This document shows positions 1 through 35,902 of a stretch of DNA of 39,408 nt, piece after piece. The translations under genes were made by a program, and so were the position numbers. The stretch's first letter is position 1. Every line of letters starts with the position of its first letter. The stretch covers positions 1 through 39,408 of the forward strand of contig RBNJ01000143.1 of assembly GCA_003990765.1 (NCBI GenBank), read 5' to 3'. The DNA comes from Jimgerdemannia flammicorona. Its lineage: Eukaryota. A model generated the notes under the pieces. It was not told the DNA's origin. It made no database searches and worked only from the letters and a program-made list of their open reading frames with translations.

Positions 1-131
1 GACAATGTCTAAGAAATTAGACAATGTCGGAATCGAGGACTGCTAACTATAATGCTATACTACTTTGGGAATAGGTGCGATCAAGTGTCTATTCCCTATT
101 TCCTTCTTCCAAATCTGGCTGTACCATCACA
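1..131 (-). repeat. Partial 3' LTR of E1
   Basis: Matches 6259-6389 with about 10 differences by hand count; ends ...accatcaca (TGTGATGG on minus strand). Confidence 0.95.
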
Positions 132-143
132 ACTTCCTCCTGA
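132..143 (-). promoter_or_regulatory. Polypurine tract of E1
   Basis: Minus strand AGGAGGAAG-T directly before the 3' LTR TG. Confidence 0.7.
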
Positions 144-168
144 ATGGATGGTCTCATCCCTGAGGCAT

Positions 169-630
169 CTATTCAAACTCCCAGACTTCAACAGTCTGTA
201 TGGTCTTGTACTGTACGATTTGCTGCATGACTGTTTCCCAATGATGTCTTCTCACCTTCTCGAAGTTGGTGGAAGTTACTCCTCTCAGGTGGTCTATCGC
301 TGCTTCATCTTCTTGAAATAACTTATGGATCCTTTTGGCAATAGTGATCTGTGAGTGGGAGAGTTGACACTCGGCGATCCAGTCCTCCTTGGTCTTTACT
401 GGATCCTGATTGAGCACCTGTCCAAGCTTGAAATACTCTTGGAATTCTGCACGATACTGATAAGCTCTAAAGTGCGAGATCCGAGAGAGATGAGTCTACA
501 CAATACTCTGAATATCCTCATAGTATAGCTCTATGGTTGGAGGCTCGGTGGTGTGCCATTGTCTTTTGATGGCTCTTTGGGCAGCACTAGTGATCTTGAG
601 TGCTATCACAGTACTTTTGTTACTGGTCAT
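169..630 (-). pseudogene. E1 ORF3, ~153 aa orphan ORF after integrase (one internal TAG)
   Basis: ATG at 630 is in frame with track ORF 169-417: MTSNKSTVIALKITSAAQRAIKRQWH...EFQEYFKLGQVL...IAKRIHKLFQEDE...WEFE; the internal TAG is CAG in the E2 homolog. Confidence 0.8.
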
Positions 631-1813
631 GATATTTCTTGAGTCAGTTTCGGTAAATGGTGGTGGGGATTATTGTGTCTGAGGGTTTTCGTAGCCAAAA
701 GGTGGTCCCTTTTATATCTTGCACAAGGTAAGGTCCTTCCCACTTGGGCTCCAGTTTTTGTGACCATGAAGCTTCTACCATGTTCCGATACACCAGGACC
801 TTGTCTCCTATCTTGATAATCTCCAAGGGCTTGTGGATCTTTTCCACATTCCTTCGTTGTAGTGTCTGTGCCTTGGTTATGTAATCCTCAGCCTTCTTCC
901 TGATTTGGTGTAGTCTCCGTATCTCTATGTCCACATGTTTCCATACAGCATCTCCATTAGATGATAGGGTTCCTTGAGAACATTCTTCTCCAAACAGCAT
1001 TTCTCGAGAGGTAAAGTGGGTGCTTTGTAATCGGATATCCCGGAGAGCAGATAATGCTATTGGCAGATAGTGATCCCAGTTCTCGTAGTTATCACAGATC
1101 TTGGCGATAACATTCTTGAGGGTCTTGTTGATCCTTTCTACTTGTCCATTTCCTTGAGGGTGATAGGCTGTGGTCCGAATGTGCTGAATCTTATACTTCT
1201 TGTAGAGAACTTCGAAGAACTTGTTCACGAATTCGGTTCCTCTATCTGTAGTTACTTGTGTTGGGGTCTTGAACCGGCAGATGATTTCCTTGTGGAAGAA
1301 ATCGGCGATTGACTGTGCATTGGCTTCCTTGAGAGGTCCTGCTTCTATCCACTTCATAAAAAGGTCTACGATGACAATGATGTATCGGTTGCCAGTCAAA
1401 GTCAAGGGTAGTGGGCTGATTACATCCATTGCAATGTGGGCGAATGGTACTGGTTCTATGTGTGCTGATCCTGGGGCTTGATTTCGTTGGTCTTGTTTCT
1501 GTTTCTGGCATTTGTCGCATGTTTTGACGAATTGTCTGATATCTTCCTCCATCCCTGGCCACCATATTGTTCTTCTTGCCTTGTCGTATATATTTGTTCC
1601 TCCTAGATGGTCAAGTTCATGTACTGATTTCATTGCTTGCTCCTTCTTGTGTTCTGGTATGACTAGTAGTTTTCCTTTCTTCAGTGTTTCTCCATCAGTT
1701 TTGAATTGTTTCCATGTTCTGTTGATAATCGTTTGTGTTCATTCTTCCAGATGTTGGGGCATCTTTTGCTGTCCCAGGTATGTGATGATTCCATAGTAGA
1801 GCTCCTTATTCAT
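620..1813 (-). pseudogene. E1 integrase in its own reading frame (HHCC, DDE core, GPY); two internal TGA
   Basis: HELDH...CDKC, MDVIS/TDRGTEF/GQVER, KWEGPY; ATG at 1813 (MNKELYYGIITYL) overlaps the RT-RH stop; ends YHDQ* at 620. Confidence 0.93.
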
Positions 1814-4800
1814 GATTGATTTGTTGGTTGGAGGTAGTTCGAGGTGTCCGTAAGAGAGCATCTGTATTGGAGTTTATTCTTCCAGGGCGGTGCACGATGG
1901 TTACATCATAGGCTTGTAACTTCATTATCCATCTGGTATAGATTCCCTTGGGTTGTCCGGTTGTCAGTAGCCAGGTGAGAGCTGAGTGGTCCATCTGGAT
2001 AGTGAAGTATCTTCTGGCCAGATAGTAGTGGAACTTTTCCACAGCTCAGATGACTGCAAGGCATTCCAACTTGTAGGACTCATATTCTTTTTCAGCCCCT
2101 TGGGTTCCATGGCTAAGATATGCAATGATATACTCTTTTTTGTCTTCTTTTTGAGCTAGGACTGCTCCTAGTCCCTGTGCACTTGCATCCATCTGAAGGA
2201 TAAATTCTTGGATCCAATTGGGTCATCTGAGGATAGGTACCTAAGTTAGTCTGACCTTGAGTTCGTCAAATGCTTTTTGTTGTCTGCTAGTCCACTGGAA
2301 CTTGGTATCCTTCTTGTTGAGTTCATAGATTGGGCCTGCGATGTTGGAGAATCCTCTAATGAATCTGCGATAGTAGGAGGCAAGTCCCATGAAGGCTTGG
2401 GCTTCTGTGACGGTAGTGGGCCTTGGGTATGCTGCTACCACTTGTATCTTGAGGGGGTCCATATGTATTCCATCTCGATTGATGATATGGCCAAGATAGG
2501 AGATCTCAATTTCCACAAACTTGCACTTTTTGGGTTTGATATAAAGGCCATGTTGTCTTAGTCTCTCCATTATCTGCTGTATGTACTGCAGATGTTCCTC
2601 GGCCATCTTGCTGTAGATGATTACATCATCGACATAGACCATCATCCATCTTCCCATGTCATAGCGGAAGATTTTGTTCATCATTCGCTGAAAGCTTGCT
2701 GGTGCATTGCACATTCCGAATGGCATTCGTAAGTAGATGTAGGTTCCATCTGGGGTGATGAAGGCTGACTTTTCGCTTGCCACTTCTGTGAGTCCGATTT
2801 GGTGGAATCCTGAGTATAAGTCCAAGGTGCTGTAGTACTGTGCTTCATCTCCCAGTATTATAAGAATGTCACTGATGAGCGGCAGTGGTTGGCGATCCTT
2901 CTTGGTGACTGCATTGAGCTTTCTGTAGTCAACACAGAGCCTTGGGGCAAATTCTCCAGGTTTGCTTCCTTTTTTCGGGGCTAGTACAACTGGTGAAGAC
3001 CAGGGGCTGCTGGCTTCTTTGATGATAACAGCTTCTTCCATCTGCTTGATTTCTTCTCTGAGCCATTCTCGGTAGGCTGGCGGGACAGGTCTTGCTTTCT
3101 GATAAATTGGTTCGGTGTCTCCAGTATCTACCTCATGATAGTAGTGTGGGGTCTTTCCCTTGATATCCTTGAAATCCGTGGCAAGGACATCCTCGAATTT
3201 GTGGAGTATTTTCTTGAGTTCCTTCTTAAGTGGGAATTCGTCTCCAATGGTGTAACTGTGCTTGCTCGTGTTTTCCTCCTTCTTGTGCTCAAGTTCAGTG
3301 ATCTTGGTACTGGTGAATACTCCTCTTCCTGTGGATCCGAATCCTTTCTTTCCTCTTTTCGTTTCCTCCAGATTCTTGACTTCTATGATCCTTGGCTGTA
3401 TGATTGGAAAGATCAACATCTGTGCCAATCGGTCCTTCTTCTTGACTGGGAATGGAATTGTAAGATTGTGGTTCCTAGCAATAAGTAGAATTTCTCCCAT
3501 ATAGTCTGAATCAATGACTCCTCCTTCGATTGTAATTTCGCTTCTAGCCAGGCTGCTTCTTGTCTTGAGAATCCTGACATGATCCTTTGGGATGGTCATC
3601 TCCAGTCCAGTTGCGAGTAGGGTGGTTGTCTGGGGTTTGAGTACAGTTTCTTCTACTGTAGTGATGTCCATTCTGGCTGCGTTTTCTGACTTATATTCTG
3701 GCAAGACTGTGTCAGGGTGGATCTTTCGAATCTTGACCTTGATTTCTTCTTCATCATCACTGTCCTCCAGGAGGGCTGGTGGTTCATCATCTTCCTCTTC
3801 TTCTTCTTCTGTAGTCTGTTTTTCGAGAGCTTTCTGGCTTCTTTCCTGGTAGATCTTCCTGGTTCTGATGGTGCACTGGTAGCAATCATTGACATGTTCC
3901 ATACAGTACATCTTGATTCCATGAGGACAGACTCCTTGTGGGGCATAGCCTTCTGCGATCTTCTTGCACCATTCTTCTTCACTCATCCATCCGACTTTCT
4001 TCTTCTTTGCGGTAGTCACTATATAAGCTTCCTCTTGCTCGCTCTCTTCTTTCTCCATATCAGGCAGGACTCCTTTGTTGACATTGATGGGAATTCATAT
4101 CTTCTGTCCCTGGTAGGTGATTTGCATTTTCTGAGCATTGAGATCGATTACCGCTTTGGCTTTGTGAAGCCATTGATTGCTGATGAGGATGTCATAGTTG
4201 GTGGCATTGGTTACGATTACATCTACTGGGATTGTTACTCCTCCGATCTTGATGGGAACATCTCGGATCTTTCCCAGAGGTGTGGCTCTTGTGCCATCAG
4301 CTGTGACGAATACTAGCTTGGTTGCTTCTTCCACATCTCAACCTAGGTGGTCTGCTGCCTTCTTACTGAGGAGACATCCTCCTGCTCCTGTGTCAATGAT
4401 GGCTTCAAAGACTCGATCCTCAATTTGGCATGTTGCATAAGCAGAGGTTTTGCGATTGTCCTCACTTTCTTCTCCTGAGTCTTCTTGAACATTATTGGCC
4501 TCGGTTATCTTCCATCCTTATTCCTTGGTTGTTTCGGCAAGTCCAAACCTCATTTGCTGTCTGAATGTTGGGATTTCTGCAAGCTGACCAAAGGTTGCAT
4601 TGACCTTTTATTGACTGAGATCCTTGAAGATATCATACTTGAAGGTCTTGGTCTTGCGAAGCTTCTTTTCTTTTTCTCCTTCACTGGCTGGAGTGGTTCC
4701 TCGGATGATATCTTGAACTGCTTGCTCCAGCTCGATATCCTGGTCCATCTCTTTGGCTTAACTTTCTGTGGCAGTTTCTATCCGCTTTTCCACTGGATTC

Positions 4801-5792
4801 TTCTTGGGTCTTCCTGATAGTCTCTTGTAGGGTTCTTTGCAAACATCCTTCTTGGTGGTCTGAGCAGGATAGGCCTCCCATTCCTCTTCATCGGATTCTC
4901 TGATTTCTTCAAAGGTGATTGTATTGGCCTGCTCCTTATTTTGTGTGGTATTGCTTGGTTGAGCCTTATATTTGGTTTCACTCATACATTCATAGGAGTA
5001 GTAGCCTTCTTCTCTACAGCTGTAGCAGGTACCTTTCTTCTTGTCTGAGGTGGTGGCAAACTTCTAAACAGGATGGCAATCTCTTTCTCGGATTTCCTTT
5101 ACCACATCTCCCAGGTGGGCAGTCATTTCAGCAAACCTTTTGGCGAGTTCCTCCATAGGGTTACTGTTCTTTTGCTGCTCTGTAGCTTTTGGCTGAGGTG
5201 TGTTTCGATTGATCATTGTGGTGGGGATCACACTGGTTGCCTTGGGTGCCTTGATTCTGACTCCTGTAACTCTTTCCATTGTATGGTCTTGTGGGTGTCT
5301 GGCTATCCAGTATCGCTGAGCATAGGTGACCTTTTGTGGCAGATCCAGAATCACTGGTGATGAGCAGATGTCTATGGCTATTTCTGGATGGACTCCTTTC
5401 ATGAAGATTGCTTTGGCTACTTGATCTCGGATAGCAGCAGCATAATCTGCAAGAATTATCTGATATCGAATTCTGGTATAGAATGTGTTTGGATCCTCAC
5501 TCATTCCTTGGCACATTGTGTTAAGCTGATCCTTCAGGGCTTGCTTGATCTCGTCTGTGTAATATGTGTTTCAGAGCCAGGTCTTCTGTGCTGTCAGTAT
5601 GGCATCGGCATCATTTTCTGCATGGGTTATGGCTGTAAATGCTGCTCTGGCAGGGCCTTGTAGGCTGAAGGGCATGAGGGCTACTTGCTGTGCTGCTGTC
5701 AGAGTTCTTACAGCAGCATACTGCTCGAAATTGTCAATGAAGGTGATGATTGATTCATCTGAGGTATATCCATGGAATACTGGTAGTCTCAT
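1806..5792 (-). pseudogene. gag-pol: E1 gag-pol polyprotein (Gag, Zn knuckle, protease, CPHG module, dUTPase, RT, RNase H), one frame with nonsense stops
   Basis: Track ORFs starting at 6107/5516/4985/4334/4058/2042 share one frame; degenerate knuckle CYSC..G..S.EC ~4987-5028, IIDTGAG ~4380-4400, RLCVDYRKLN, MPFG, YVDD, RNase H DAS and DH motifs. Confidence 0.95.
3327..3743 (-). other. dut: dUTPase domain in E1 pol (between PR and RT)
   Basis: All five trimeric dUTPase motifs: AA(R/G)MDI, RSSLA, GVIDSDYMGE, RLAQ, RGKKGFGSTG. Confidence 0.95.
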
Positions 5793-5892
5793 ATCTATCT
5801 TGTCTGGGTATTGGGGCTCAGTTTGTATGGTTGTTCGGATAGTAGTGGTTGTTCGTTGTTTAGCTTGAAAGTGAGGGATTCGTCTTGAATCA

Positions 5893-5910
5893 CCAGCCAA
5901 TGAGCACCAA
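5893..5910 (-). promoter_or_regulatory. Primer-binding site of E1
   Basis: TGGTGCTCATTGGCTGG starts 3 nt after the 5' LTR CA; TGG complements tRNA CCA; mutated equivalent follows the E4 LTR. Confidence 0.75.
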
Positions 5911-5912
5911 GT

Positions 5913-6389
5913 TGTAACATAGCGGACGCTTACTCTTGAAAGTACGTCAGATTTCTGTATCTTGAAAACTTGACCATTCTGACTCTCGCAGAGTCTCTTG
6001 AAGTTGTAGGAGAGGGTGGGTGAGTTCGAAGTATATCTGCCTGCAGGCTTACTAGTTCCTTTGCTATCTCTTTGCTTTTGAACTATTTCGATCTGAGGTT
6101 TATTCACTTGAAGACACTGGGTTATTTATACAAGTTTGCTAGCTATGAGAGGGTGGCTAAGTAATAAATGAGTTATTTGGACTTTATTGAAACATTCAGA
6201 CAATGTCTAAATGCTATATTAAATCGGAGTATCCGATTTGGATAATGTCTAAAATTTAGACAATGTCTAAGGATTTAGACAATGTCGAAATCGAGAACTG
6301 CTAACTATAAGGCTATACTACTTTGGGACTGGGTGCAATCAAGTGTCTATTCCCTATTTCCTTCTTCCGAATTTGGCTGTACCATCACA
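5913..6389 (-). repeat. 5' LTR of E1 (477 bp)
   Basis: TG...CA ends (tgtaacat...catcaca); minus-strand TATAAATA at 6123-6130; homologous to 6458-6953 and 18880-19335. Confidence 0.95.
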
Positions 6390-6457
6390 ATGTATAAATA
6401 TTTATAATAAATTTATATAATTTTAATATTAGTATATTAGATAAATATAATTAATAT

Positions 6458-6953: not shown

Positions 6954-8346
6954 ACTTTCTTCTAAATAAATAATTTTACTCCTAAATTATCTTATTCAAA
7001 CTCCTATGCTTCAATCAATTGTATATTCTTATACTATATAATCTACTCAATTATATTCTTTCAATAGTGTCTTTTTATCTATTAGAAATCTTTTGAGACT
7101 ATATCTTGAAAATAGACTAGAGCTTACTCATTATCTTTAAATGAGTTATAAACCTACTTAGCTATAGTAATATAAGTATAGGATATCTAGCTCTCTACAA
7201 TCTATTCTTCTTTAGTTATATTCTTTTTATTTAAGCAATTTTCTCAACTTAAAATACTCTTGAAACTCAGTATAATATTAAAATTTATAATAAGTAAGTC
7301 TGTACAATACTTTGAATACTATTAAACAATTTCTCTATAGCTAGCAGCTCAGTAGAATACTATTGTCTTTCTAAAACTCACTGAGCAATACTTGTGATCT
7401 TGAGAGTTAGAGTAATATTTCATAGTTAGCTATAGTACTTCTTGAGTTAGTTTTAATAGATAGTAGTGTAGATAATTATATCTAATTGTTTTTATAGCCA
7501 AAAGGTAGTTTCTTTTACATTTTACACATTATAAGATCCTTTCTATTTAGGCTTCAGTTTTTATAACTTTAAAGCTTTTACTATATTTTAATATATTAAA
7601 ACTTTATCTCTTATCTTGATAATCTCTAGAGACTTATATATCTTCTCTATATTATTCTAGTATAATACCTATATCTTGATTATATAAGCTTTAGTCTTCT
7701 TTCTTATTTAATATAGTCTCTATATCTCAGTATCTATATATTTTCATACTATATCTTTATTAGATAATAGAGTTTCTTTATAACTTCTTCTCTGAATAAT
7801 AATTCTCAAGAGATAAAATATGTACTTTGTGATCATATATTCTGAAGAGTAGATAATATTATTGACAGATAGTAGTTCTAATGTTTATAGTTATTATAGA
7901 TCTTGGTAATAATATTTTTAAGTATCTTATTGATCTTTTCAGTCTATCTATTTCTTTATAGATAATAAGCTATAGTTCAAATATACTAAATCTTGTACTT
8001 CTTGTATAGAATCTCAAAGAGCTGGTTCATGAATTCTCTTTCTCTATCTGTTATTACTTGCTTTGGAATCTTGAATTAGCAGATGATTTTTCTATAGAAG
8101 AAATTAGTAATTAACTATATATTGACTTCTTTGAGAAGTCCTACTTCTATCTATTTCATAATGAGATCTATAATAACAATAATATGTCAATATTAAGAGT
8201 AGTGGATCAATTATATTTGCAATATGGACAAATAGTACTAATTCTATATCTACTGATACTAGTATCTAGTTTTGCTAATCTTGCTTCTGTTTCTGGTATT
8301 TATTACAGATCTTGACAAATTATCTGATATCTTTCTCTATTCTAGA

Positions 8347-18879: not shown

Positions 18880-19638
18880 TGTGATGGTATAGCCAAATTA
18901 GGAAGAAGGAAATAGGGAATAGACACTTGATTGCACCCATTCCCAAAGTAGTATAGCTTTATAGTTAGCAGTCACTGATTTTGACATTGTCTAAATTTCT
19001 AGACATTGTCCAAATTGAATACCCTGATTTAGTATAGCATTTCAACATTGTCTAAATTTCTAAACATTGTCTAAATGACTCATAACTTAGCTGCATAACT
19101 CAGTAGCCATCTCATAGCTAGCAAACTTGTATAAATAACCCAGTATCTTTGAGTGAATAAACCTCAGATTGAAAGTGTTAGAAAAAGAACAAGTATACTG
19201 ATAAAAGGACTTTCAGGATTACCTTTTTAAACATATTTGGCCTCAAGGAACTACTGACTCTGGGAGTCAAAAAGACAAGAATTCAAGATAAAGAAATTTG
19301 ACATACTTACCCACCTTAGTGTCCACTACATTATAACTTAGTACCCATTGGCTGGTGATTCAAGATGAATCCCTCACTTTCAAGCTGAACAACAAACAAC
19401 TGCAACAAGAACCCACATAATACAATCAGACAAAATAGATATGAGACTACCCGTATTCCATGGATATACCTCCGATGAATCAATCATCACCTTCATTGAC
19501 GATTTCGAGCAGTATGCTGCTGTAAGGATCTTAAGTGTAGCACAACAAGTAGCTCTACTCTCTGTAAGCCTCCGAGGTCCAGTAAGAACTGCATTTACTG
19601 CAGCCAATGTACAAGCAGCCAATGATCCAGAGATTATC
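18880..19638 (+). mobile_element. E4: 5' fragment of an E1-family element (5' LTR 18880-19335, PBS, gag start 19441-19638)
   Basis: Reverse-complement match to the E1 LTR and leader; MRLPVFHGYTSDESIITFIDDFEQYAAVR nearly identical to E1 gag; ends at LINE A. Confidence 0.93.
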
Positions 19639-19723: not shown

Positions 19724-21751
19724 ATGGTGACCAATGAGCATCTGGAGGTGCATACTGGGCAGGGTGGCCCTGGAGCTTTTGAATGGCAGCAAGTGGGGAG
19801 AGGCCCCAGCTTGGGGGGAAGTATGAGGGGCCTGCTGGCGGGAGGCCGTGGTGGAGGAGGAGGTGGAGCTGGAGGGCAAGGGTCTGGCAGGGTGAGCTTT
19901 GCGGAGAAGGTGAAGGGGGGTCAGCAAGGGGCTGGACTGGAGAGCTGGCTGTGAGGGGGGAAGGTACCAGTGAAGGCTGCCAGACAGCAACCTCTTGGGG
20001 GTACCTCTCTGGAGGGCCATAGGGGTGGAGCTGGGGGGGTAGCAGCTGGGGCGGGGACTGCTGATGGGGGTGTGACGGGCGATTTGGAAAAAAATCTAGA
20101 TGGGACTGCTGATGGTGAGCCAAGTGGTGGGAAGGGCACGAGGCCAGGGGATCTGGCAGATGGTGTAACAGGACTGGCGGTGGCTCCATTACTCAAGAAG
20201 TCAATCTCAGCATTCACAGTCACATTGTGTTTCCGAGGCTTAGCAGTGACAGCGAAAATGGTGTTGGGGCTTATCGCTAAGCAGGTGGCTGGAGCAGCTT
20301 TGGTGAAGTTCCTGAAGGGACTGGAGGGGATGGAGGTGGGCTTTGAGGAGGTCGGACTGCTGGAGGAGGCACTGAGGGTTGGGCTGGTGGTTGGAGAGGT
20401 GTGTGTTCTGATGGCAAGGTGTTTGAAATGGGATCCAAGGGTGGTCCAACTGCTGGTGAAAGGAGTCCCTACAGTGATGGCAATGGAGATGAGAAAGAGA
20501 GTGGAGGATGTCATGGCAGAGTACGGCGAGGTGATGGATATTGGATTCCGGGTCTGGGAAGGGACCACACTCAGGACTGGGGATGTGGATGTGAGGATTC
20601 AGCTGGCCAGAAAGGAGGCTACTGGAAAGATGAGGGACTGGCCTTCGACGATGGTTTGGGGGGCATTCCTGTGCAAGGTGACATGGGTGAAAGGGAGCGA
20701 AGAAGAGGAGGAGGATTTGTTGGAAGTGCTGGAGGAGCTGGATGGAGTGGTGGACCGGTGTGCCAAGGCTTGGAAGACTTTCGAGGAGTTGACGCACCTG
20801 GAGATAGTGGATGGGAAGAGGATTCGAGTGAACAAGGTGCAGTGGGAAAGGGCTCAGGGGCGGAAGAGGCAGAAGGATCTGCTGGCTAAGCTGGGGGGTA
20901 GACAACCGAAGGATGCGAACATGATGGCAGGTGCCGAAGGGGCTGGAGCGAGTGTCTGGGCTGGTGAGAGGAGTGGGTATGATGGGGCAAAGACAGGGAA
21001 GGCGAAGGAGGTGCCAAGTGGCGACCCATATGCGGATGGCACCTTGGAGGTTTGGGAGGAAGTCTGGGAGAACTCCCCCACCCCTTCCCCTCTTATCAGG
21101 CATGGCCCGGCTTCCAGGAACAAATCTGGGGAGGACGTGATGATGCTGGGGACCCAGCAGGTGAAATTCAGCATTCCGGAGGTAATGGATGGGGACCAGG
21201 TGGTGGCAGCCGGGGAGGAGGAACTGGTGGATCTCCCAGAGGTGTGGGATGAGGACGCGAGTGCTGGAGCTGACACCACGATGCTGGACGGAGGGAGGTC
21301 AGCGACCCCTGGTGGAAAGGAGGTGGGGAACCTACTTTGGATATGCTGGATGATGAACAACCTGGCGGCAGAAGAGCTGGGGGAGGTAGACCTGTGTGGG
21401 ATGAGTGATGAGCACTGGGCAAGAATTTTGCAGGGAGAAGGTGTGGTGATGGCACTGAAGGCGGAGATTCTCGCAGTGTATCTGGAGGAGGAAGGGTATG
21501 AGGTGGACAAGGAGAGGGAGGCAGAGTTGGCAGTTGTCACTGGGGAGAAGGCTGAGTACTGTTGGAACAGGCATCATAGGCTACAGCTTTGGCAGGAGGC
21601 TTGCATCGAGTACCGAGAGGAGTTTGAGGAGAAAGCTGATGAGGAGATGAATGAGCTGTTGGCTGGACTGGAGGCTCAAAGGGCTGAAGAGGGGGAGGTG
21701 ATGGCTGAACACAATCTGGACATGGCACAGGAGGAGATGGGCATGGAGTAG
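19724..21751 (+). pseudogene. LINE A ORF1 (Gly-rich N-terminus, RRM-like core, acidic helical C-terminus; one internal TGA)
   Basis: Track ORFs 19724-19954 and 19970-21751 are in frame; SFAEKVK, EYGEVMDI, RTGDVDVRI; colinear with LINE B ORF1. Confidence 0.85.
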
Positions 21752-21784
21752 TAGGGATTGATTGCGAACAAACCGTATTTCATT

Positions 21785-24700
21785 ATGAATAGTACAACCA
21801 ACATTTTTTCTTTGAACGTGAATGGGCTAAGGGGTGCAGTTAGACGCAGGAACATTTTTACTTGGTTGAAGGGATTGGAGGCCGATCTCTTCCTCTTGCA
21901 GGATGTCAGGTGCGAGGATGATTCTGATAGGATGGAATGGACTAAGGAATGGGGTGGCATGGCGATTTGGAACAGCAAGGTTGGGATTCTGGTTTGGAAA
22001 GGCAGAGGGGAGATACAGAATGTAAGGAGCTGGGGGGAGAGACTGGTCTGGGGTGAGTGGATTCGTGCAGGGTGGGAGCCGGTTACAGTTGGCTCCTGTT
22101 ACTGCCCTACTGTGTGGAGGGAGCATGTGGATTGGGTGAAAGGGCTCCTGGAGAGTGGGGTCCTTGCTGAAGCTGGGTTGGACATACTTGGAGGTGATTT
22201 CAATATGGTGCAGGATGTACAGCTGGATAGAACCGATGGAGGCCGGGGTGCTGAGAGCAGGAGTGGGGGGCTGGCAGTGTGGGAGGAGGTCAAAAGGCTA
22301 GGAGCGCTGGTGGATGCTGGTAGGGTATGCTGGGGGGACAGGAGGGTATATACACATTGGGCTGGAGGTCTGGGGACAAGGATTGACTGGATTCTGTCAG
22401 CCGACTGTTGGGGCCATGACATTTGGAAGGAGCTAGAGGTAGAATGGTGTCCGTAGTCAGATCACTGGGGCCTTTTGGGACAGGGGTGTTTTGGGGGTAG
22501 TGGTGATGGACCTGGACATTAGCGCCTGAACTCCTCCTTGTTGGATGACAAGTCCCAGTAGGAGGAGTGGGCAAATGACATTCAGATTAAGGTGACGAAT
22601 TGGTGGCAGGAAGGGGCCACCATTGGGGTTCGGTGGAGAAGGATGAAGGAGATGGCCAGGATGTACTGGAGCAAGGCTGGCAGGGTGGCTGGGAGGCAGC
22701 GAAGGCAGAAGGTATATTGGGCTTCTACTAGATTGGCTAGGCTTCTGGAGGAGTGGGCGAGTCTGGCAGTAGTGGAGGGAGAAGAAGATTGGAGAATAAC
22801 AAGGGTGAAGATGGAGGTTGGGAAACTATAACAGGTGCTGTGGGAAGAGGAAGAGGCAAGGGTGCAAGGCCTGGCAGCACGGCTTCGTTGGCAGGGACTG
22901 GAGGAAGGGGAGAGGCCTTCCAAATTTCTTACGAGGATGCTTTGAGCAAGACAGGTACAGCAGCAGTGGGAAGGGGTACTTTACTCAGATAGTAGACTAG
23001 TGCACGGTGTACAGGATATCCTTGGAACACTGAAGGTGCGATGGAGTGGATTGTGGAGTGAGGAGGAGGGTGGGGCGGACACTACAGCCATTGAATGAAC
23101 ATTAGAAGATTGGCACACTCCACGAGCTGAGGGATTAGGCAACCTGACGATGCCTGTAGAGGAAGATGAGATCCACCAGGTTCTTGCCGCGACAGCCTTG
23201 GGTATGGTGCCTGGGGAGGATGGTCTCCCCTGGGACTTCTGGAAGCGAATGGTTGGAGTCCTGGGCATTTTTGGAGAGTTGATGGCACTGTGTGACTCCA
23301 TATTGCAGTCAGAGAGATGGGTGGGGGAGCAGGATCTTGGGCTGGTGATGCTGCTTTATAAGAACAAAGGAAGGCGAGAGGATTGGAAGACTGGTGGCCG
23401 ATAATGTTGCTAGATATGGACAGAAAGTTAGTGACTAAGGTGGTGGTCGCAAGGCTGCAGAAGGTGGCCCAGCAAATTGTGGGAGTTGAGCAGAGGGGCT
23501 TCATAGGGGGTCAGCTTATTTGAGATGGCATGGCCTGGGTGCACGGCATTATTGAGGGTGCTCGAGCCTGTGGACTGGATGGGCGTCTTGTCTTCCTAGA
23601 CCAGGAGAAGGCTTATGACCGGGTGTGGTGAGTCTGGCTGGCGAAAGTGTTGGATAGGATTGGAGTTTCAGTCCAATTTCGGGTGGTGATGGTCAGCCTA
23701 CTGGAAAGGAGTAGGGCTGTGCTCGTGTGTAATGGGCATAGAGGGGTAGCTTTCTCTCTGGGTAGGGGGTTGCCCCAGGGGGACCCACTGTCTCCCATTT
23801 TGTATGCACTTTCCTTGGAGCCTCTACTGGACCGAATTCAGTAGAGGATTGTGGGGCTTTCTATCTATGGAATTGGCTGGAAAGTTGGAGCCTTTGCAGA
23901 CGACATGGTGGTTGGGTTGGGAGTAACTGCAGATATTGAGGAGCTCAAGGAGATGGTGGAGGGGTATGAGGAGAACTCTGGGGCGAAGCTGAATTGGCAC
24001 AAGTGTGAAACGATGGTTTTAGGCAATGGACTGGTAGGTGGAGAGGTTATTGGAACAATTGTCCCCACTAGAGAAGTGGTGTGGTACTTGGGCATATTTT
24101 TGTCAGTCTATGGGTCAGTTCTGCCCAGGCTGTGGTGGGAGCAGAGGATTGGAATTTGGGAGGAGGATCTGCGGGGTTGGGGGGGAAGACACTTCTCTCT
24201 GGCAGGAAGGATCTCGATTTTGAATATATACTGGCTGCCGAAATTGTGGTATTTGGCTTATCATCTGGACTTCCCAGCCTAGGTGGTGAAGTGATCGGTA
24301 AAGGTAGCCAAGGGATGGATTTGGGCTGGCAGAAGGAGTCAGATTGGTTGGGAGACGCTGTTCCTACCGGTGGTGAGAGGTGGTCTTAGGCTGGTGGACT
24401 TCCCCAAAAGACTGCACTGCTTGAGGGCATGGTGGCTTAGAAGGGCAGTGGAGTTGTGTGGAGGGGGTTGGGTTCCCCTACTGCAGAAGGTATGGGAGAG
24501 GCGGACATCGCCAAGAGGCTTGACTGGAGATCTTCTTTCATTAGTTGGGCTTCAGAACACTGGGCAACTGCGATATAAAGGCTTCTGGTGGGGGATAGCC
24601 AAGGGGGCGCACCGCATTGGTATTCGCTGGTAAGGAGATGAGGGGGAGAGGGCTTGGGGCCTGGCGATGTGGAGATGGGATGGCATTCTGCTGGGAGGCA

Positions 24701-25440
24701 TGCCTTTACTGGAGTTTGACATTGGTGATGGAATCAAATGTCAAAGGGGACCAGGCCAGGATCTGTGGCCTAGTGGGTGGCAAGGGGTCAGAATTGGTGA
24801 GGAGTGGGACTAGCAGGGGGTTTGGACCTGGAGTGCCATGGTGAAACATTGGATGCCGCTGAAGTACTGGGTGGTCTGGTGGTATATGCTGAGGAGGAAT
24901 GTAATGCTTAACTTCTGCTCAGGTCACCTTGTCATAGGGGGCTGCTTTGACTGTGAGGAGTGTCATAATGTAGGGTGGGAAGGGGAATATGTACAGATGC
25001 CAGAACATTGGCTTGGGGTGTGTGAGGTGTTGGGTGACTTTTGGCGGGCCATTGGGGACCGCTCAGGGGTAGGGCATAGGGGGGATGATGTATGGGGGAG
25101 GTGGGAAGATCTGAGGGATTGATTGATAGGAGGGGTAGGGGAGGAGTGGCTTACTCTAGGCTGGGTATTGGCTATTTGGGTTGGGCTGGCCAGTCACTGG
25201 CTATTTGTATTTGAGGAGGGGGGGCAATAGAGCTTGGGGAGTCGGGTATCATGGTGGCAGTACCTTATGGAGGATATCTTGACAGGCTGGTGGCTGGGTT
25301 GGGGGCTGCAAGGGGGTCAGAGGCACCATTTGGTGGTGAAAATCTGTGGTCAGAGTGGTGGGAGAGTTGGAGTTGTTGGTGAGAGGGTAGTCTTTACACA
25401 TGATGAGATGGGGAGGGGCCCCCCAATGGGGATAGGGTAG
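21785..25440 (+). pseudogene. LINE A ORF2 (AP endonuclease, RT, C-terminal Cys/His motif), multiple stops
   Basis: SLNVNGL, GGDFN, RIDW, SDH, PGEDG, LDQEKAYD, GLPQGDPLSP, FADD, YLG, CEEC...EHWLGVC; ends GIG*. Confidence 0.95.
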
Positions 25441-25515
25441 GGGGTGGTGTTATTGTATACTTATTCATAGATTGGTAATAAAGACGGAGTCCAAGGGACT
25501 ATAAAAAAAAAAAAA

Positions 25516-26351
25516 GAGACAATGACCACTGGCATGAATACCAACCCACCTTCACCCCCAATTACTTCAACTATAATGAAGAGACCGGAGAACACAACCT
25601 ATACCTGCAGACAACCCTGGAGATTGAACCAACCACTCCACTACCTGAGAACGAGTGATATGAACCACAGCTGCCAGCTTACTACAATCCTGCAACTCAT
25701 AGTGCTGTAACCTATAGAAGGTACACAGACAGTGAATCCAATGAAAGCAAAGATGATATACCCATCCTTCATCCACCAACACCTTATCCAGCCTATGAGA
25801 CAGATGATGCTATCCTGTAGGATGGAGATGAAGTCCCAATGTATTACTACCTCAGTAAATAAGAAGAAGTAATCCGCGAACCACTTTCCTAGATGACTAC
25901 TTCATCAGAGATGATGCAATCAATGGTGATGTCATCGAGGACTACCCAGATAGTGCCTAAACCCATAAATAGCCTAGCAGTTATAGTATAGTTAGATTAG
26001 CCTGGTACAACATGACTGTGAACTGACTCAGTAGTCAGATGATCTCTTGACATGTCAGATCACACTTGTACTACATGACTGCATTCCAACTCAGCAAGGT
26101 ACTTAGTACAACATCCATATTCAGCATAGTCCAGATAGCCCCTCACTAGTATAAATACCCACTCCCCCAGACCTCAGAATCTCAGACTCGAACACACAAG
26201 AACATTCCTGAATACTTCCCCACAATATCCCTTCACACAACTACTCCTAGTATAGCAATATCATGAATGGCAAATAAACCTATTCAATAAACCACAAACC
26301 ACTCTTAAGTAAATCCGCTCTCTGTTAGGTCCTACTCCTAACTCCCTTACA
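25516..26351 (+). repeat. Distal part of E3 5' LTR (left end lost at LINE A)
   Basis: TATAAATA 26150-26157, two AATAAA, ends CTTACA, the inverse of TGTAAG that starts the 3' LTR; left extent inferred, no overlap with the visible 3' LTR. Confidence 0.6.
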
Positions 26352-26383
26352 AAATTTCCTAATTGGGTATTGTCTGCAGCGAT

Positions 26384-29300
26384 ATGCCAATTCAACTAAG
26401 CTGGTCTTAGTTTCTTGAACTTCCTGTAATACGGAAATCCTGAATATCCAGAACTAGTCCGAAAAAAGGACTTTGGTTGAGATGTCAACCCGATCATGAA
26501 ATCAATAAGCATAAAGGACGTACTCCATATGAAATTGATCTTGACCATAAAAAAATGGTCTTCCAGAATATCCAGAACTTCCAGAAAACCCTTCCAGAAC
26601 TACGTAATGGTTACCATAAAAAGCAACCCTCTTACAACTTGGTAGCAGTGGTTTACAATCCAATTCCGCTTCAAGATGCTTCCTCACCCTGCTACAAACC
26701 CTTCTGAGAATTCTTACAAGTTGGTATAAAGTCCAACATTCGAACTGGAATTTATCCTGAACCATCTGACAATCTGGAGAGAATTGAACCTGACGTACAA
26801 GGACAATTTGACCTCTACACCTGCAACAAGTGGGACAAACTTCATTCTAAGAAAGAAGTATACCAGCAAATAGGCAAAACCCTATTCACCGAACTCCTTG
26901 CACTACACCCAGCAAGTCAAGATGAAGAGAAGCCTTCTTTACTCTTCTCAACAAGAGTTTTGTCAGCTCCACAAATCCGAGTGACCTAGGACAACCAGCA
27001 GCAGTCTTTCTAGCCTTAGTTCCTCACGAAGCACAAGTGTCTGTAGCCAAGTGGCTCAACTCTACCAACTTTCACCATACCAGGACCAAGACCACATTAT
27101 ACTACCGATTCCAGAACAGCAAGGCCTGCCATATTCTTAAAGAAGAAGCAAGAGAAACCCTTCATCAACTACCTGATCCTGAACCCGAAGCAGGCCCTGC
27201 TACAGCCCTACCTGTATCAGAAACTAACACTGAACCTGAACTTGACTTTGAATTAAGTCCATCTGAAATCAGATATACAACTGATTCCGTCTACTTTGAT
27301 GCTGAGCAAACCCAATTACACAGGGACCAAACCAAAGAGGAGGAGGAGTATCTCACTGAATTCGATCCCAGATACACCACCGAAGGAGACACACATCCAT
27401 CAGGACAGAATATACCTACACAGCAACAAACAGTTATCTATCAAGCCCTTACTCCAGATCCACAACTACTACTCCAGCAACTTACACAGACCCAAAGAAC
27501 TCCATCACACTCTGCACCAGTACCTCAAGTAGTACCAGTAACACCATTACCAGCAGTCCAACCGCCTCCAGTAAACAACATGGTGAACCAACAGATTCTT
27601 GATCTCACAGCCCAAGTAGCTACAATGGCAGCAACTATTACTGCCTTAGCTAAACAGACCTGACCTACAAAAAATCTGAGTCTACCTACCTTCAATGGTA
27701 CTGCACAAGAAGTCCAAAGCTTTATTAGTGTAGTTGACACCAACTTCAAAGCCAATCAATGGACCAATGAGCGAGTTGCTGACCATGTTCTGATAAACAA
27801 TCAAGACCACACTCTGGAACAACTCTTTGCTACCACTACAGCCTATGTCCACCAAGTTGTTACATTCTCCCAAGGACCTGCCAAAGAATGGTGGCGAACC
27901 CTTCCTGAAAAACCCCTCACATGGGATACCTGACCTGCAGTAGTTGCTCAGAATGCAGCAAACAATGCCCCAGGATATGGAGCCCATCCTGCAGCCCCTG
28001 GACTCAAACAACTCATGATCACTCAATACTGCAGCGAAACCATGATTGCTGAGTCTCAAGTAAAACTCCACAGCCTCAAATTTGATATACATGACAAAGA
28101 AGAATTCGAAACCTTCTGTACAAAACTTGAGTCACTCCTGAACACTGTTGGCCTAGGATATATTGCCAACAATGAAGCATGAAATGGTACAAGAGCAGAC
28201 CATTTATTTGATGCCCTGCCTGAATGGTTTACCAGAAATATCTGAGAACAAGGCTGCCCAGTTGGTGGTAACTACCAACAATGATGCCTGGTAAGAATCA
28301 AGACTATGGTTAAGCAAATCCTAACAGCTGGACCAATTCTGCCCCGAAGACAATTTAACAATAATGAAAAGACTTGGACCAAGAAAGAAGAACCCAAACA
28401 TAAAGCATCCCGAGCTCCCTCCACATCTATCTCTTGGATGCCAAGAAATCATGAACCTACCCAGCCAAGTATCTTCAAGAAACTTACTGAAGGTGAAAGG
28501 AATGAACTTCGAAGAAGTGGAGCATGCTTCTATTGCTGAAAGACAGGACACATGGCCAGTGCCTGCCCTAACCAAAAACCCTGAACAGCAACAAGAGCAA
28601 CTGTTACCACTCTGCACCACCTCAACAACCTGACCACTAGAACACGGAACTTTGTCAAGTTAAGACAAACTGCTAAGGCCCCAATCAAAGGAAGTCAGAA
28701 AGCAGCTGGATATGACCTATATGCAGCCGAAGAAGCTACAGTTTCCAACTGAGAAGTCAAACAAGTCTATACAGGAATCAGCATCCAAATCCCTGAAGGA
28801 CATATTGGAAGAATATGCTGTCGCAGTAGCCTAGCATTGAAAGGACTCTCAGTAGAAGGAGGAGTCATTGATGAGGATTACACAGGCGAAATTATTGTCC
28901 TCATCCGAAATCACAGTTGGACACCCTTCAAGATCCCTATTGGTTTCTGCATCGCCCAGATCCTATTTGAAAAAATTGAGTCAACCCTGACAGTCAAGGA
29001 AGTCCCTGAACTACTGCCCACCATCTGAGGATCCAAAGGATTTGGCTCATCCAATAAGGCCCCAGCCCAACCTACCATGAACAAAGAAGAACAATTCTAC
29101 AAGAAGATCAAAGATGGATATGTACCAAGTGGCTGATGTCCTCATGGCATTAGAATATACTCTTCCTGAATGATTGATGATTGCTTCTCTTGTGTCAATG
29201 AACTGGCTCAAAGAAGAACCAACAGAAGGAAAGCTCCTACAACCGAAATCACTACCATTGGATCAGACAAACTACTCACACTTAAGGCTTTTGTCAACCA

Positions 29301-30146
29301 AGCACCTGTCAAGATTATGATAGACAGTGGTGCCTCAGGCAACTTCATCAATAAAGAGATAGCCAACAGACTCAAGGTCTTTACCTCTCCAGTACAGCAA
29401 ACTCAAGCAGTTGCTACAGCCAATGGGACCTCACATGTTATTAGCAATGAAGTCTGCAATCTACCCCTCCGAATTGGTGACTACTGAGTACATGTTATCC
29501 TCCAGATCATACCACTCCCTGACAATGAAATCATCCTTAGGACTCCATGGTTAAAATAAGAGAACCCTATGATCGATTGGGTAAACCATTCTCTGACCAT
29601 CAAGAAAGGATGCCACAACTTCAAACTGCAAGGTGAAAAAGACCCACTTAATTCTGGTGACCCTGGACCAAAGATCACCCACATCAACAAGTTACAACTC
29701 AAGAAATTGGTCAAGAAATGCCCTCTCTTCGCCATCTCCATCTGCTCATCCAAAGGAGAACCTGAGAACTCTGAAGAAGATTTTTCCAAAGTTGACAGCC
29801 ATGTTAGACCACTACTCCAGAAATTTCGAGACATATTCCCAAAAAAGCTCCCGAAAGACCTACCTCCTAAGCGAGCAGTAGACCATGCCATCAAGACTAT
29901 TCCAGATACCAAACCAGCCTTCAAGTCAATCTACCACATGTCTCTGAGAGAAATCGATGCACTCAAGAAAGAAATTGCAAACTCCTAGAATAAGGATTCA
30001 TCAGACCCAGTGTATCACCTTATGGTGCACCAGTCTTATTTGTTGTCAAGAAAGGAGGAGACCTATGAATGTGTATTGACTACCATGATCTCAATGAACA
30101 GACCATCAAGAACTGTTGCCCACTACCAAGGATTGATGAAATATTT
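26384..30146 (+). pseudogene. gag-pol: E3 polyprotein 5' part: unknown N-terminal region, Gag, knuckle, dUTPase, CPHG module, PR, RT start
   Basis: ATG 26384; track ORFs 27037/28306/28837/29170/29569 share one frame; LPTFNG, IDSGASGNFI, LPPKRAVDHAI, SPYGAPVLFV, LPRIDEIF. Confidence 0.88.
28651..29052 (+). other. dut: dUTPase domain in E3 (between Zn knuckle and protease)
   Basis: AAGYDLYA, RSSLA, GVIDEDYTGE, IAQ, (R)GSKGFGSS. Confidence 0.95.
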
Positions 30147-30231
30147 TTTTTTTTTTTTTTTTTTATAGTCACTTGGACTGCCCTTTATTACCGAAGTCTA
30201 TAGTTCTAACAATACAATGTCACCCTCACCC

Positions 30232-33200
30232 TCAGCCAATGCCCCTTGGCCCCAACCCACCTCCCTCAATCTCCTCCTGCCCGAGCACCACCCAATTACC
30301 CACTACCCGAATCCTCCCCCTACTCTTCTGGGATATACACTATACCAAGCCCCTGCAGCGACCCCCCCCTAGCCCCCAACCCTACCACCAACTATTCAAA
30401 ATGTCCAATAGCAACCATTCCCAATGTGCCACCTTGTCCCCGACCCCAACCTGATGCCCTTCTTCAAAAACATGAACCCAATGCCCAGCCAACCCAACCC
30501 ACATAGCCAAAGCCCAACCAAGGGTCAGCCATTCATCCCCAACTCCACCCACCAGTCGCTGGCAGAGCTCTCCCCATCTTCCCCCTCCCTCTCCCTCCAA
30601 TGCACCCAGCCCTAACCTATCCATAATACATTTCCAAAACTGCTCCAAAACCTCACACTCACCAAGCCAATGTTCAGGCATTTGTACCACTCCCCCCTCT
30701 TGACCAACATTGAAACAATCCTTGCACTCGAATGCTCCACCATCCACCAAGTGCCCTGACTGATAGTTCAACATCACATTCCGCTGTAGGACCTGCCACC
30801 ACACCACCCAGAACTTGGGGGGCAGCCACTGCCTCACCATTTTGCTCCAAGGCCAGAGTCCATGCCAATCCCACTCCTCACCAATTCCAACCCTCTGCCA
30901 GACTTTGGGCCACAGGTCTCCACCTAGGCCTCGCAGACACTCCAAACCTTCACTAAGCTGAAAGTCCTCCACCAGAACACCACCCAGAAGAAGCCTATCC
31001 CACCACCACATCCTTGGTCCCCAGTCCTCTGCAGCCTCATCACCTCGCCAGCGAAGTCCAATTTTCTTGGCACCATCCACCACCCCCTACCAGAAACCCA
31101 TAAATCACATTCTCCTGCTCCCTTCCATGGCCACCATCACAAGCAGGTCACCAGAGTCACCACATGGGGAGTACTGAACCTCCCACAACCTCTGCATGAG
31201 TGGTACCCACTCCTGACCCTGCAGCTCACTCACCCTTCGCAACCACCAAGCTTGCAAACAAAGAAGCTGCCTAGTAAAGTCCACTAAGCTCAGCCCACCT
31301 CTTTCCAAGGGCAGTGTGAGAACCTCCCAACCAACCTGGCTGCGCTGCCCACCCCAGATCCATGACCTCGCCATCTTCAACAGCCCCTTGACCACCCAGG
31401 TTGGGAAATCCAAATGATAACCAACATACCACAGCTTAGGCATCCAATACATATTCAGCACCATCACCCTTCTAGCTAGTGACATGTGCCGGCCACCCCA
31501 ACACAACAGAACATTTCCCCACTCCTGAAGCTGATGGTCCCACCAAGCCCGGGGAAGAAGAGAACCAAATACTGAAAAGTAGATTCCCAAGTACTGCACC
31601 GGTTCGCCCACCAGTACCACCATCCCAATGACATCGCCACCAACAATGCCAGCTCCTAGCACCAGTGTCTCGCATTTGTGCCAGTTTAGTTTAGCACTGG
31701 AACCCCTCTCATACCATTCCACAGATCTCTGCAACTCCCCCACATCCTCCATGGAGCCCAGCCCGACCACTATATCATCAGCAAAGGCCCCCATCTTCCA
31801 ATTGACCTCAAGAATGTCCAAACCCCCAATCTGCCACTGAATTCTGTCCAGTAGGGGCTCTAGAGAAAGGGCATACAAAATGGGTGACAATGGGTCCCCT
31901 TGCGGCACCCCACGCCCTAGGGAAAAAGTCTCCCCCCTGTGGCCATTAATGACCAGTGCTACCTGACTGTCCTCCAGGAGGCATTAAAGATCCTTGAAAC
32001 CCTGGGGGAATGCCAATCTGTTTCAGCACTCCTACTAGCCATATCCTCTGCACTTGATCAGGGGCTTTCTCCTGGTCCAGAAACACCAACCTGCCATCTA
32101 CCCCTGTCGCCCGGGCACCTTCAATTACTCCATGAACCCAAGCCATCCCATCTCGAATCAGCCGACCACTGACAAACCCATGCTGCTCCACACCCAGCAC
32201 CTGCTGAGCGATCCCCTGCAGCCTCATCACCAAGATCTTTGTCACCAGTTTGTGGTCCATGTCGAGAAGCATGATCAGCCGCCAGTTTTTCCAATCCTCT
32301 CTCCTCTCTTTGTTCTTGTAGAGGAAGGAAACTAGCCCCAATTGCTGTCCCCTAATCCAAGCACCAGACTGAAGGACCCCATTACACATGGCAGTCATTT
32401 CCTCAAGCACCTTGCCCACCCCAGCCATCTTCTCCCAAAAATCCCAGAGAAGTCCATCCTCTCCTGGGGCGGTCCCCTTACTTGTCGAAGCCACAACCCT
32501 GCAAATTTCACCACCACTCACTGGGTCCCCCAATGCTCCAAGTCCCATTGCAGGGTCCGGGTGCCAATCTTCCAGCTGTCTGTCAACGTCCAAAGCATCC
32601 ATTCCACCCTTCTCTTGGTTCTCAATAGGTCCAGAATTGCCAGAGTCCCTACCATCAGCCTGCCCTCCTCATCCAGAACTCCCTCCCACTGCTGTTTCGT
32701 TTGCCGCACTCATAACATTCATGACAAAAACCTAGTAGGTCTCTCCCCCTCTACTAGCCCCTGCCACCATAGTCTGGCCACCATTCCTTGCATCTGCACC
32801 TCTTCCTCCCAGCATAACACCCCTTGAAGCTCTACTATCTCCTGCCAGATTCGAACAATGCACCAATCAGACATGTCCCCATCCTCCAGCACACCTGCCC
32901 ATCTTTCCATGAGTGCCTCCAGGCGCCGTGAGGCCCACAGCCCCCTCCACCTCTGCTGACCACACTTTCCTTTCCCAGCCTCTCTCCAATAGCCCTGAGC
33001 ATTTACCTTCAAATGTCTCCAGCAGTCCTCAATCCCAAGGCCTTGTTCCTGCCACCTGCCAATATTTCCCACCACCTCTATCTCCCAACTCTCCCACAAT
33101 GCTGTATCCTCCAATAATGCAGAATTCAGCTACCAATGTCCAGGCCCATCCTCATTACCCCCAAACCTCCCCCCCCCATGCAGCCCCCAGTGATCAGACC

Positions 33201-33870
33201 ATGGACACCATACTACTTCCAGTGCTGACCAGACATCTGCACCCCAACACTCCACAGTCAGAACCCAGTCAATCCTGGAGCCCAGCCCTGCTACCCAGTG
33301 GGTATATACCTGTTGCTCGGCCCAAAAATGTCTTCCCGAGTCCACTAAAGAACACAACCTCTCCATTTCTAACCAGTCACCCAACCCACCACTTTCACCC
33401 TGCACACCTTGCACGCTATCCATTCTATCTATCTCCTTATCCTGGACCATGTTGAAGTCACCCCCCATACAGTCCAGCCCAACATCTCCCAATACATCAG
33501 TCTCCTTCAATCTGTGAATCCACTCCACTCTCTCCCCTCTCTCAGCTGGGCAATAGCAAGACCCAACCATCAATGAGCCCCATCAAGGCCTTTTCCACAT
33601 TCCCCACACCACCCTAGACCCCCAATGTCCAATGTCCTCAATGTCCCCCATCCCTTTCCTAATGAGAATACACACTTTTCCCCTCCATACAGCCATGCTC
33701 CCCCATTGTCTAGTCCAATCCTGTAAGTCCACATCTGCCTCATAATGAACATCCTATAACAAGAAGAGGTCTGCATCCAGTCCCTTAAGCTATCCAAATA
33801 TATACTTCCTCCTAGCTGCCCCCCGTAACCCATTAATGTTCAGCGAGAATATCTTAGTTGTACTGTTCAT
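30232..33870 (-). pseudogene. LINE B ORF2 (APE-RT-CCHC), stops and frameshifts
   Basis: MNSTTKIFSLNINGLRG, GGDFN, SRIDW, SDH, PGEDG, PQGDPLSP, FADD, CKDC...EHWLGEC, ends GIG*. Confidence 0.93.
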
Positions 33871-33900
33871 ATTGGAAAAATGTGGTAAAAGAGACCCAGC

Positions 33901-35817: not shown

Positions 35818-35902
35818 GTTAATAGTCGCTGTACACCAAAAACACAGTGAAAAGTGTTGTCTGAGTCTTGTGTCACCTGAATGTTACTGGTGAAAGATGT
35901 GC

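Follow-up and report, generated by a model that had tools for sequence, protein, structure and literature searches.

The open reading frame that lies between the integrase and the 3′ long terminal repeat (LTR) of a retroelement in the soil fungus Jimgerdemannia flammicorona, here called ORF3, is a coding accessory gene of a Ty3/gypsy family that carries a dUTPase and has no chromodomain. Its product is a lineage-restricted accessory protein, neither an envelope protein (Env) nor a chromodomain, and is predicted to be soluble and all-helical, about 153 amino acids in length and outside the described families, in that no relative was found among them. ORF3 is very probably a real, selected gene.

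The window, meaning the whole stretch of 39,408 nucleotides that was analysed, opens with the retroelement in question, E1, an LTR element that takes up the first 6.4 kb on the minus strand, and continues with a decayed relative, E2. The parts of the two elements that are referred to below are the following.

1..131, minus strand, from 131 downward: start of the 3′ LTR of E1 (TGTGATGG...), which runs past the window edge
133..141, minus strand: polypurine tract (PPT) of E1, AGGAGGAAG, directly 5′ of the 3′ LTR, read from the sequence
630..169, minus strand: ORF3 of E1, 153 codons plus stop (ATG 630..628, stop TAG 171..169)
498..496, minus strand: in-frame TAG that breaks ORF3 of E1 at codon 45
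622..646, minus strand: junction between the integrase stop (TGA 646..644) and the ORF3 start (ATG 630..628) of E1
644-1633, minus strand: integrase (IN) ORF of E1, with zinc-binding part, core and GPY/F-type C-terminus
1809-1960, minus strand: junction between RNaseH (RH) and IN, with IN in the +1 frame (L001:4516-4619 in the metagenomic copy introduced below)
1809..5591, minus strand: gag-PR-dUTPase-RT-RNaseH frame of E1, with 10 in-frame stops
5631..6390, minus strand: 5′ LTR of E1, matching the start of the 3′ LTR in self-comparison, inner end approximate
6391-~12100: E2, directly adjoining E1, with a GC content of about 23%
6992..7433, minus strand: ORF3 remnant of E2, located by nucleotide alignment and by tblastn matches from the family proteins

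E1 is a Ty3/gypsy (Metaviridae) LTR retrotransposon that bears a dUTPase and no chromodomain, as assigned from LTRs starting with TG, the PPT and the gag(CCHC)-PR-RT-RNaseH-IN order. Another copy of the family was recovered by a metagenome scan, in which one of 305 pattern matches encoded an ORF3 relative. This contig, L001, measures 6,479 nt and represents a near full-length element, which is 74% identical to E1 throughout and contains an intact gag-PR-dUTPase-RT-RH ORF of 1,260 amino acids, to which the gag-RH frame of E1 is 69% identical in one frame (tblastn). Pfam matches follow the same order in L001 and E1, namely zf-CCHC, aspartyl protease, dUTPase, RVT_1, RT_RNaseH, Integrase_H2C2 and rve. 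The dUTPase lies between the protease and the reverse transcriptase (RT) in both copies (E1 2241-4058, minus strand; L001:837-4616) and was matched at 6.9e-25 in E1 and 2.9e-28 in L001; the corresponding values in E1 are 8e-34 for RVT_1, 1.7e-15 for Integrase_H2C2 and 3.1e-13 for rve. In E1, the IN frame can be followed back as far as about 1909 and is interrupted once, by a stop at 1741, and its ORF closes just after the GPY/F-type module. The IN ORFs of E1 and L001 gave no Pfam match to Chromo. The PPT run AGGAGGAAG precedes the LTR in L001 as it does in E1, and the LTR pair of E1 is 92.4% identical over the 132 nt available (1..131 against 6259-6390).

E1 is dead: its ORF3 contains one nonsense codon, and its gag-pol/IN contains 11. 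Near-identical pieces of its family are present in soil-metagenome contigs of several studies and in one organism run. The contigs of four public runs, of which three are soil metagenomes and one comes from an organism, all have G or C at many A/T sites of E1 within window 1-1700, and at sites 185 and 215 codon arithmetic on these contigs gives Ala codons in the relatives and Val in E1; the contigs placed on E1 showed no joints. As to L001, its first 177 nt repeat the end of ORF3, the PPT and the start of the LTR, so that the contig has been assembled round the LTR. An 18-nt unit, CAGATGTAGAGATCTTAG, is repeated in tandem at least four times inside the LTR where the contig ends (L001:6395-6479).

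ORF3 of E1 starts 13 nt past the TGA that closes the IN ORF and ends about 27 nt ahead of the PPT (141..133). A first-pass annotation of this DNA had described here a hydrophilic ORF of about 153 amino acids between integrase and PPT that is not Env, and both statements are borne out, the former with its coordinates. The protein has a GRAVY of −0.58, and its top 19-residue Kyte-Doolittle mean is 0.29, with a range of 0.19-0.74 across five family members, compared with a usual threshold of about 1.6 for transmembrane (TM) segments. No TM segment, signal-like h-region or hydrophobic fusion segment was detected in ORF3 by the Kyte-Doolittle scan, and an Env or env-like identity is ruled out by the absence of a signal peptide and of a TM/fusion segment. 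The slot between IN and PPT is occupied by ORF3 in all three copies having DNA context (E1, E2 and L001). In BLASTP against the element's own gag-pol, taken from L001, ORF3 showed no similarity (best E 0.76). Being on the sense strand between pol and the 3′ LTR, conserved, and unrelated to gag/pol, ORF3 belongs to the accessory-ORF (ORF3/aORF) class. The column of the TAG at codon 45 holds Q, H, N or K in the relatives.

The coding nature of ORF3 is best seen in the comparison of E1 with L001. In the latter, ORF3 is intact over 153 codons in the same slot, followed by the PPT and the LTR start, and the other five frames carry 5-15 stops. The two ORF3 proteins are 65% identical, and their genes differ at 158 of 462 nt (34% divergence) with zero indels, the differences being distributed over the three codon positions as 37/29/92 (chi-square p=2e-10). 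Over 152 codons, pN is 0.206 and pS is 0.856, which gives a pN/pS of 0.24 (bootstrap 0.18-0.32); this is a ratio of proportions and not a corrected dN/dS, because pS is saturated between these copies. The other two sense frames of the same stretch give 1.14 and 1.33, and the antisense frames 0.99, 0.37 and 1.64, where the frame with 0.37 has its wobble position in common with the ORF3 frame and contains 8-9 stops. For the same pair of copies, pN/pS is 0.25 in PR-dUTPase-RT and 0.16 in the C-part of IN. From the low pN/pS, the lack of indels and the third-position excess, ORF3 is protein-coding and constrained; it is under purifying selection to a degree comparable to that of pol, on the basis of one informative pair, E1 and L001.

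E2 is an older relative of E1 that has decayed heavily through C>T/G>A changes in a RIP-like pattern, with cytosine losses of 59% at CpA, 64% at CpG, 38% at CpC and 28% at CpT, CpA and CpG being the worst. Purifying selection on a non-Env accessory protein had originally been argued from this copy, and the underlying observations were reproduced by nucleotide alignment. The peptides LKITS.AQ (LKITSIAQ in the remnant), IQSIVQT, EFQEYFKL and (W)EFE*, the last retained as (stop)EFE-stop, are present at 7433..6992, though in different frames; E2 has CAG where E1 has its single TAG; and the synonymous ACT/ACA and CTT/TTG differences between the two copies are real. Nevertheless, E2 cannot carry the selection argument, since it is a dead copy with frame-breaking indels, namely deletions of 17 bp and 2 bp in ORF3. 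Its one-frame translation contains about 15 stops, and it reads ATA at the ORF3 start position, where E1 and L001 have ATG. Between E1 and E2, transversions per site amount to 0.14 in ORF3, 0.04 in IN and RT, and 0.10 in the 68-nt non-coding PPT/LTR flank, and those in ORF3 fall on the codon positions as 22/12/33; by itself, this pair is weak evidence of selection on ORF3. Thus the claim of purifying selection fails as argued from E2 and stands through E1 versus L001, where the frame is free of indels, the third-position excess is clear and pN/pS, with pS saturated in this one pair, is well away from 1, as well as through 27 relatives in two subfamilies.

The 5′ LTR of E1 abuts the truncated 3′ LTR of E2 at 6390/6391, and for this reason E1 may be nested in E2. 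Farther along the window, an LTR-like stretch at 18880-19601 on the plus strand shares 74.6% identity with the LTR of E1 across 771 columns and 89% in the first 131 nt; since no matching internal region follows it, this stretch may be a solo LTR that belongs to a related family. The G+C-rich stretches (51-56%) at 19970-25500 on the plus strand and 26000-36000 on the minus strand show very strong strand GC skews, of up to +0.49 and −0.54, respectively, and contain the following LINE-type pieces.

21758-22456: LINE-type piece matching Exo_endo_phos
23851-24282: LINE-type piece matching RVT_1
31105-31908: LINE-type piece matching RVT_1
31946-32602: LINE-type piece matching RVT_1

Relatives of ORF3 were collected from protein databases. 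In a first search, eight of 12 candidates proved to be relatives, with identities of 60-79%; one of the eight is full length, with 153 amino acids, and the E1 protein is 79% identical to the database protein P0002. When 1.84 billion representatives were searched with a profile, five matches were obtained, including a distant protein of 165 amino acids, and a profile that included this distant protein retrieved 27 relatives among 622 candidates, spanning 49-168 amino acids and forming two subfamilies; none of the 27 has a precomputed Pfam domain. Subfamily A is window-like and ends in ..EAWEFE. Subfamily B is 140-168 amino acids long when complete, has an invariant EGEYPPFIDFG and ends in ..ELDEWDL/V; it is 20-28% identical to subfamily A across the whole length, and the start positions of the two differ by no more than four residues. 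Residues common to both are E35, K55, E62-F63-Q64, N74, L90, R100, L104-F105, D107, A111 and G117. The net charge of the last 30 residues is −7 to −12 in subfamily B versus −1 to −2 in subfamily A, and that of residues 31-120 is −1 to +7 versus −3 to 0; the family as a whole is near-neutral to acidic (pI 4.7-7.1). A 455-aa, internally repeated protein, P0011, was matched by six short stretches, best on profile positions 97-131; it was judged not to be a relative and was left out of all ORF3 alignments. Most relatives are on contigs of less than 1.3 kb. The count of three in three for the IN-PPT slot covers E1, E2 and L001, and viral and genome contig scans found no DNA context of further relatives among 28, 69, 173 and 55 candidate stretches. 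No description of the protein family was found in the literature searched, though one may exist in Repbase or among the fungal gypsy elements already published.

Similarity and fold searches gave no known identity for ORF3. There was no Pfam match for the E1 protein, and across 28 members at E<=10 no Pfam family was common to more than four; HTH_Tnp_Mu_2 appeared in two of the 28 (best E 0.031), and Chromo matched none of the 28 at the same cutoff. The profile reached a best E of 0.46 against PDB sequences. AlphaFold2 gave a best pLDDT of 56.7 with nine sequences; when 28 sequences were used, a pLDDT of 85.2 and a pTM of 0.82 were obtained in one of the five models, the others remaining at 39.6-44.2. 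This best model, which comes from one of the five runs, has eight helices and zero strands, and together with the lack of a Chromo match it led to the rejection of a chromodomain (PF00385-type) identity, the model itself being uncertain. Foldseek of the best model against PDB returned no match at E<=0.001 (best 0.39), and VIA-align against 48,161 chains returned none at Z>=5 (best 4.2). The top VIA rows include helix-turn-helix (HTH) proteins, the TetR-type Mce3R at Z 4.2 and KorB and Spo0J at 3.8, which is noise level, as Z values below about 13 are uninformative for helical bundles. A BFVD search with the model gave a best E of 0.13, the ESM Atlas gave no usable lead, and neither the top 50 VIA rows nor those from Foldseek contain a capsid chain, the model being uncertain. 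Because the model is backed by one run only, the outcome is to be read as no known fold found and not as a new fold demonstrated. An already described gypsy domain was not met with in the Pfam, PDB and BFVD searches, none of which gave a meaningful match.

E1 and L001 have three successive frames: gag-RH, IN in the +1 frame, and ORF3 in the +1 frame relative to IN. The gag-RH stop lies inside ATGAATAA, whose ATG opens the IN frame, and this overlap, being identical in E1 and L001, suggests that the RH/IN boundary is a stop-start or frameshift junction that has been conserved, and that it did not arise by decay. At the next boundary, the position of the IN stop reads TGA in E1, TAA in E2 and CGA in L001, so that the IN frame of L001 runs 44 nt into ORF3, compared with a gap of 13 nt in E1. 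The geometry of any IN/ORF3 coupling is therefore not fixed between copies. Read backwards from its ATG, the ORF3 frame stays open for no more than 13 codons in E1 and likewise in L001; given this short open stretch and a start conserved across both subfamilies, a separate ORF3 protein is favoured, probably initiated at its own conserved AUG. The way in which it would be expressed that we prefer is termination-reinitiation on the genomic RNA, by which the ORF3 protein would be made together with IN, since the ORF3 AUG lies a few nucleotides from the IN stop in the +1 frame and IN likewise starts on the gag-RH stop. A spliced subgenomic mRNA would be an alternative to reinitiation. Potential splice sites upstream of the ORF3 ATG, chosen by eye (CTGAC...AAG and CCCTCAG), were discarded, as their bases also serve as codons of IN and some of them differ in L001. 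Among the 16 public runs carrying the element, none is recorded as an RNA run.

The first-pass annotation had named an integrase chaperone or targeting factor and a suppressor of host silencing as candidate roles. As for the role of the protein, the reading that we put forward, as a possibility rather than a likelihood, is that of an adaptor of the integrase or of the pre-integration complex (PIC). ORF3 would act in trans as a non-enzymatic link between the integrase or PIC and a host factor, and its contacts would, speculatively, be made by two parts of the protein, namely its helical core, which is conserved, and its acidic-aromatic C-terminus (..EAWEFE; in subfamily B, ..EGEYPPFIDFG..ELDEWDL). 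This role is preferred because ORF3 sits in the chromodomain slot, its expression would be tied to that of IN, it lacks a catalytic or nucleic-acid-binding signature, and its C-terminus is acidic-aromatic. On the other hand, the tie between ORF3 and IN is one of adjacency only, and the long acidic tail is a property of subfamily B, the tail being short in subfamily A, to which the window copy belongs.

A rather doubtful alternative to the adaptor is a regulator of expression of the Tas/Rev/CERV type. Such a regulator would either transactivate the LTR, by means of a helical DNA-binding core and a tail that serves as an acidic activation domain, or promote RNA export as Rev and CERV do. A precedent exists in CERV of Cer1, which is required for export of the genomic RNA (PMC10309623). 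The mildly basic core (−1 to +7) and the strongly acidic, hydrophobic-studded tail (−7 to −12) of subfamily B would suit a transactivator, and the sub-threshold likenesses of ORF3, that is, Mce3R, KorB/Spo0J and HTH_Tnp_Mu_2, are all of the HTH kind. However, every one of these likenesses lies within the noise range given above, the core of subfamily A is not basic (−3 to 0) and its tail is short, and no NLS, zinc-finger or RNA-binding motif is seen in ORF3.

Production of ORF3 as a C-terminal extension of the integrase by +1 ribosomal frameshifting, which would place a new domain where chromoviral integrases have their chromodomain, is unlikely, and this reading is a lesser rival to a separate ORF3 protein. 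Frameshifting of this type occurs in yeast Ty elements, and the arrangement here would allow it, as ORF3 is +1 relative to IN in E1 and L001, its frame is open for 13 codons before the ATG and overlaps the end of IN, and IN itself is +1 relative to the gag-RH ORF. Yet the ATG is kept at one place in E1 and L001 (ATA in E2), and the predicted proteins of both subfamilies start within four residues of each other. Inspection of the 24-82 nt overlap by eye revealed none of the known +1 slippery sites, and a search for longer proteins returned no fused form of ORF3 among 214 candidates, the latter being weak evidence.

It is very unlikely that ORF3 antagonises RNA silencing, methylation or RIP of the host, a role close to one suggested by the first-pass annotation. 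The elements are evidently attacked, since 28-64% of the cytosines of E2, according to their context, have disappeared and E1 shows G>A/C>T changes against the family letters in four runs, and evolution faster than that of pol would fit an arms race; however, a pN/pS of 0.24 means constraint and not positive selection, both copies in the window have been inactivated anyway, and no likeness to known suppressors appeared among the matches obtained. Finally, the idea that there is no protein at all, and that the stretch is open by chance or is conserved as a nucleic-acid element that acts in cis ahead of the PPT, can draw on the E1-E2 transversion rate in ORF3 (0.14), which is near that of the non-coding flank (0.10, 68 sites), but is highly improbable, being already contradicted by the codon-position excess (threefold at third positions) and the frame-specific pN/pS, besides the indel-free alignment at 34% nucleotide divergence, a frame open in L001 where others carry stops, and a subfamily of only 20-28% identity with the same length and conserved residues.

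In a more far-reaching proposal, ORF3 would be a free-standing protein of new fold, made in stoichiometric amounts with the integrase by stop-start coupling on the genomic RNA as the last of three cistrons (gag-RH, IN and ORF3), and steering integration or shielding the element from RIP or silencing in a lineage that lost or never had a chromodomain. Taken as a whole, this proposal is improbable. If it were true, ORF3 would found a new class of factors for the targeting or counter-defence of retroelements, and no LTR retrotransposon before this one would have shown a polycistronic reinitiation cascade.

Although extra ORFs are known in LTR retrotransposons, selection has been demonstrated for few of them, and a function for almost none. 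ORF3 is a fungal example that passes coding tests, in a family of two subfamilies for which no Pfam or PDB relative was found. Should it turn out to be a partner of the integrase, to regulate expression or to act in counter-defence, it would offer a handle on the persistence of gypsy elements in fungi that mutate their repeats; should it be merely another lineage-specific accessory gene, the result is a useful annotation and not a surprise.

Among known systems, the chromodomain of chromoviral integrases occupies the same place as ORF3, C-terminal to the GPY/F module and before the PPT, whereas ORF3 is in another frame, has its own ATG, is predicted to be all-helical and has no Chromo match. 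The Env or env-like ORF3 of gypsy and Athila likewise fills the slot between pol and the 3′ LTR; the ORF3 described here, by contrast, has only 153 amino acids and neither signal peptide nor TM segment. With respect to expression, fungal RNA viruses have stop-start coupled ORFs, with UAAUG in hypoviruses and AUGA in victoriviruses. The retroelement resembles them in having a downstream start a few nucleotides from an upstream stop (ATGAATAA at RH/IN; at IN/ORF3, a 13-nt gap or as much as 44 nt of overlap), and differs in that its coupling is putative and the IN/ORF3 spacing varies between copies. We know of no stop-start coupling in LTR retrotransposons, and the gag-RH/IN and IN/ORF3 junctions would allow coupled translation to be tested in a retrotransposon.

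Accessory ORFs of the same general kind have been described in bdelloid rotifers, where the LTR elements Juno and Vesta carry diverse non-Env ORF3s and a dUTPase between PR and RT (PMC5408684). Like these, the fungal ORF3 is a sense ORF between pol and the 3′ LTR that is family-specific and not derived from gag/pol; the bdelloid ORF3s that could be named are GDSL esterases, DEDDy exonucleases or TM/Env-like proteins (PMC5408684), whereas the present one has no enzyme, TM or Pfam signature. In fungi, a survey of gypsy elements reports dUTPase in elements of Postia, Phanerochaete and Tuber and draws for some elements an 'add. ORF' without an assigned function (PMC2864245); ORF3 may be the same as one of these. 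The accessory protein closest in character is CERV of the Ty3/gypsy element Cer1 in C. elegans, an orphan protein needed for genomic RNA export (PMC10309623). By description, CERV differs in being a protein of 517 amino acids with a G-protein-like domain, translated from a spliced mRNA of five exons and having its N-terminus in common with Gag, compared with 153 amino acids after IN for ORF3 (PMC10309623). The two are nevertheless alike as lineage-restricted orphan accessory proteins of Ty3/gypsy elements, and CERV acts in trans on the cycle of its own element and has homologues confined to a narrow host group (PMC10309623).
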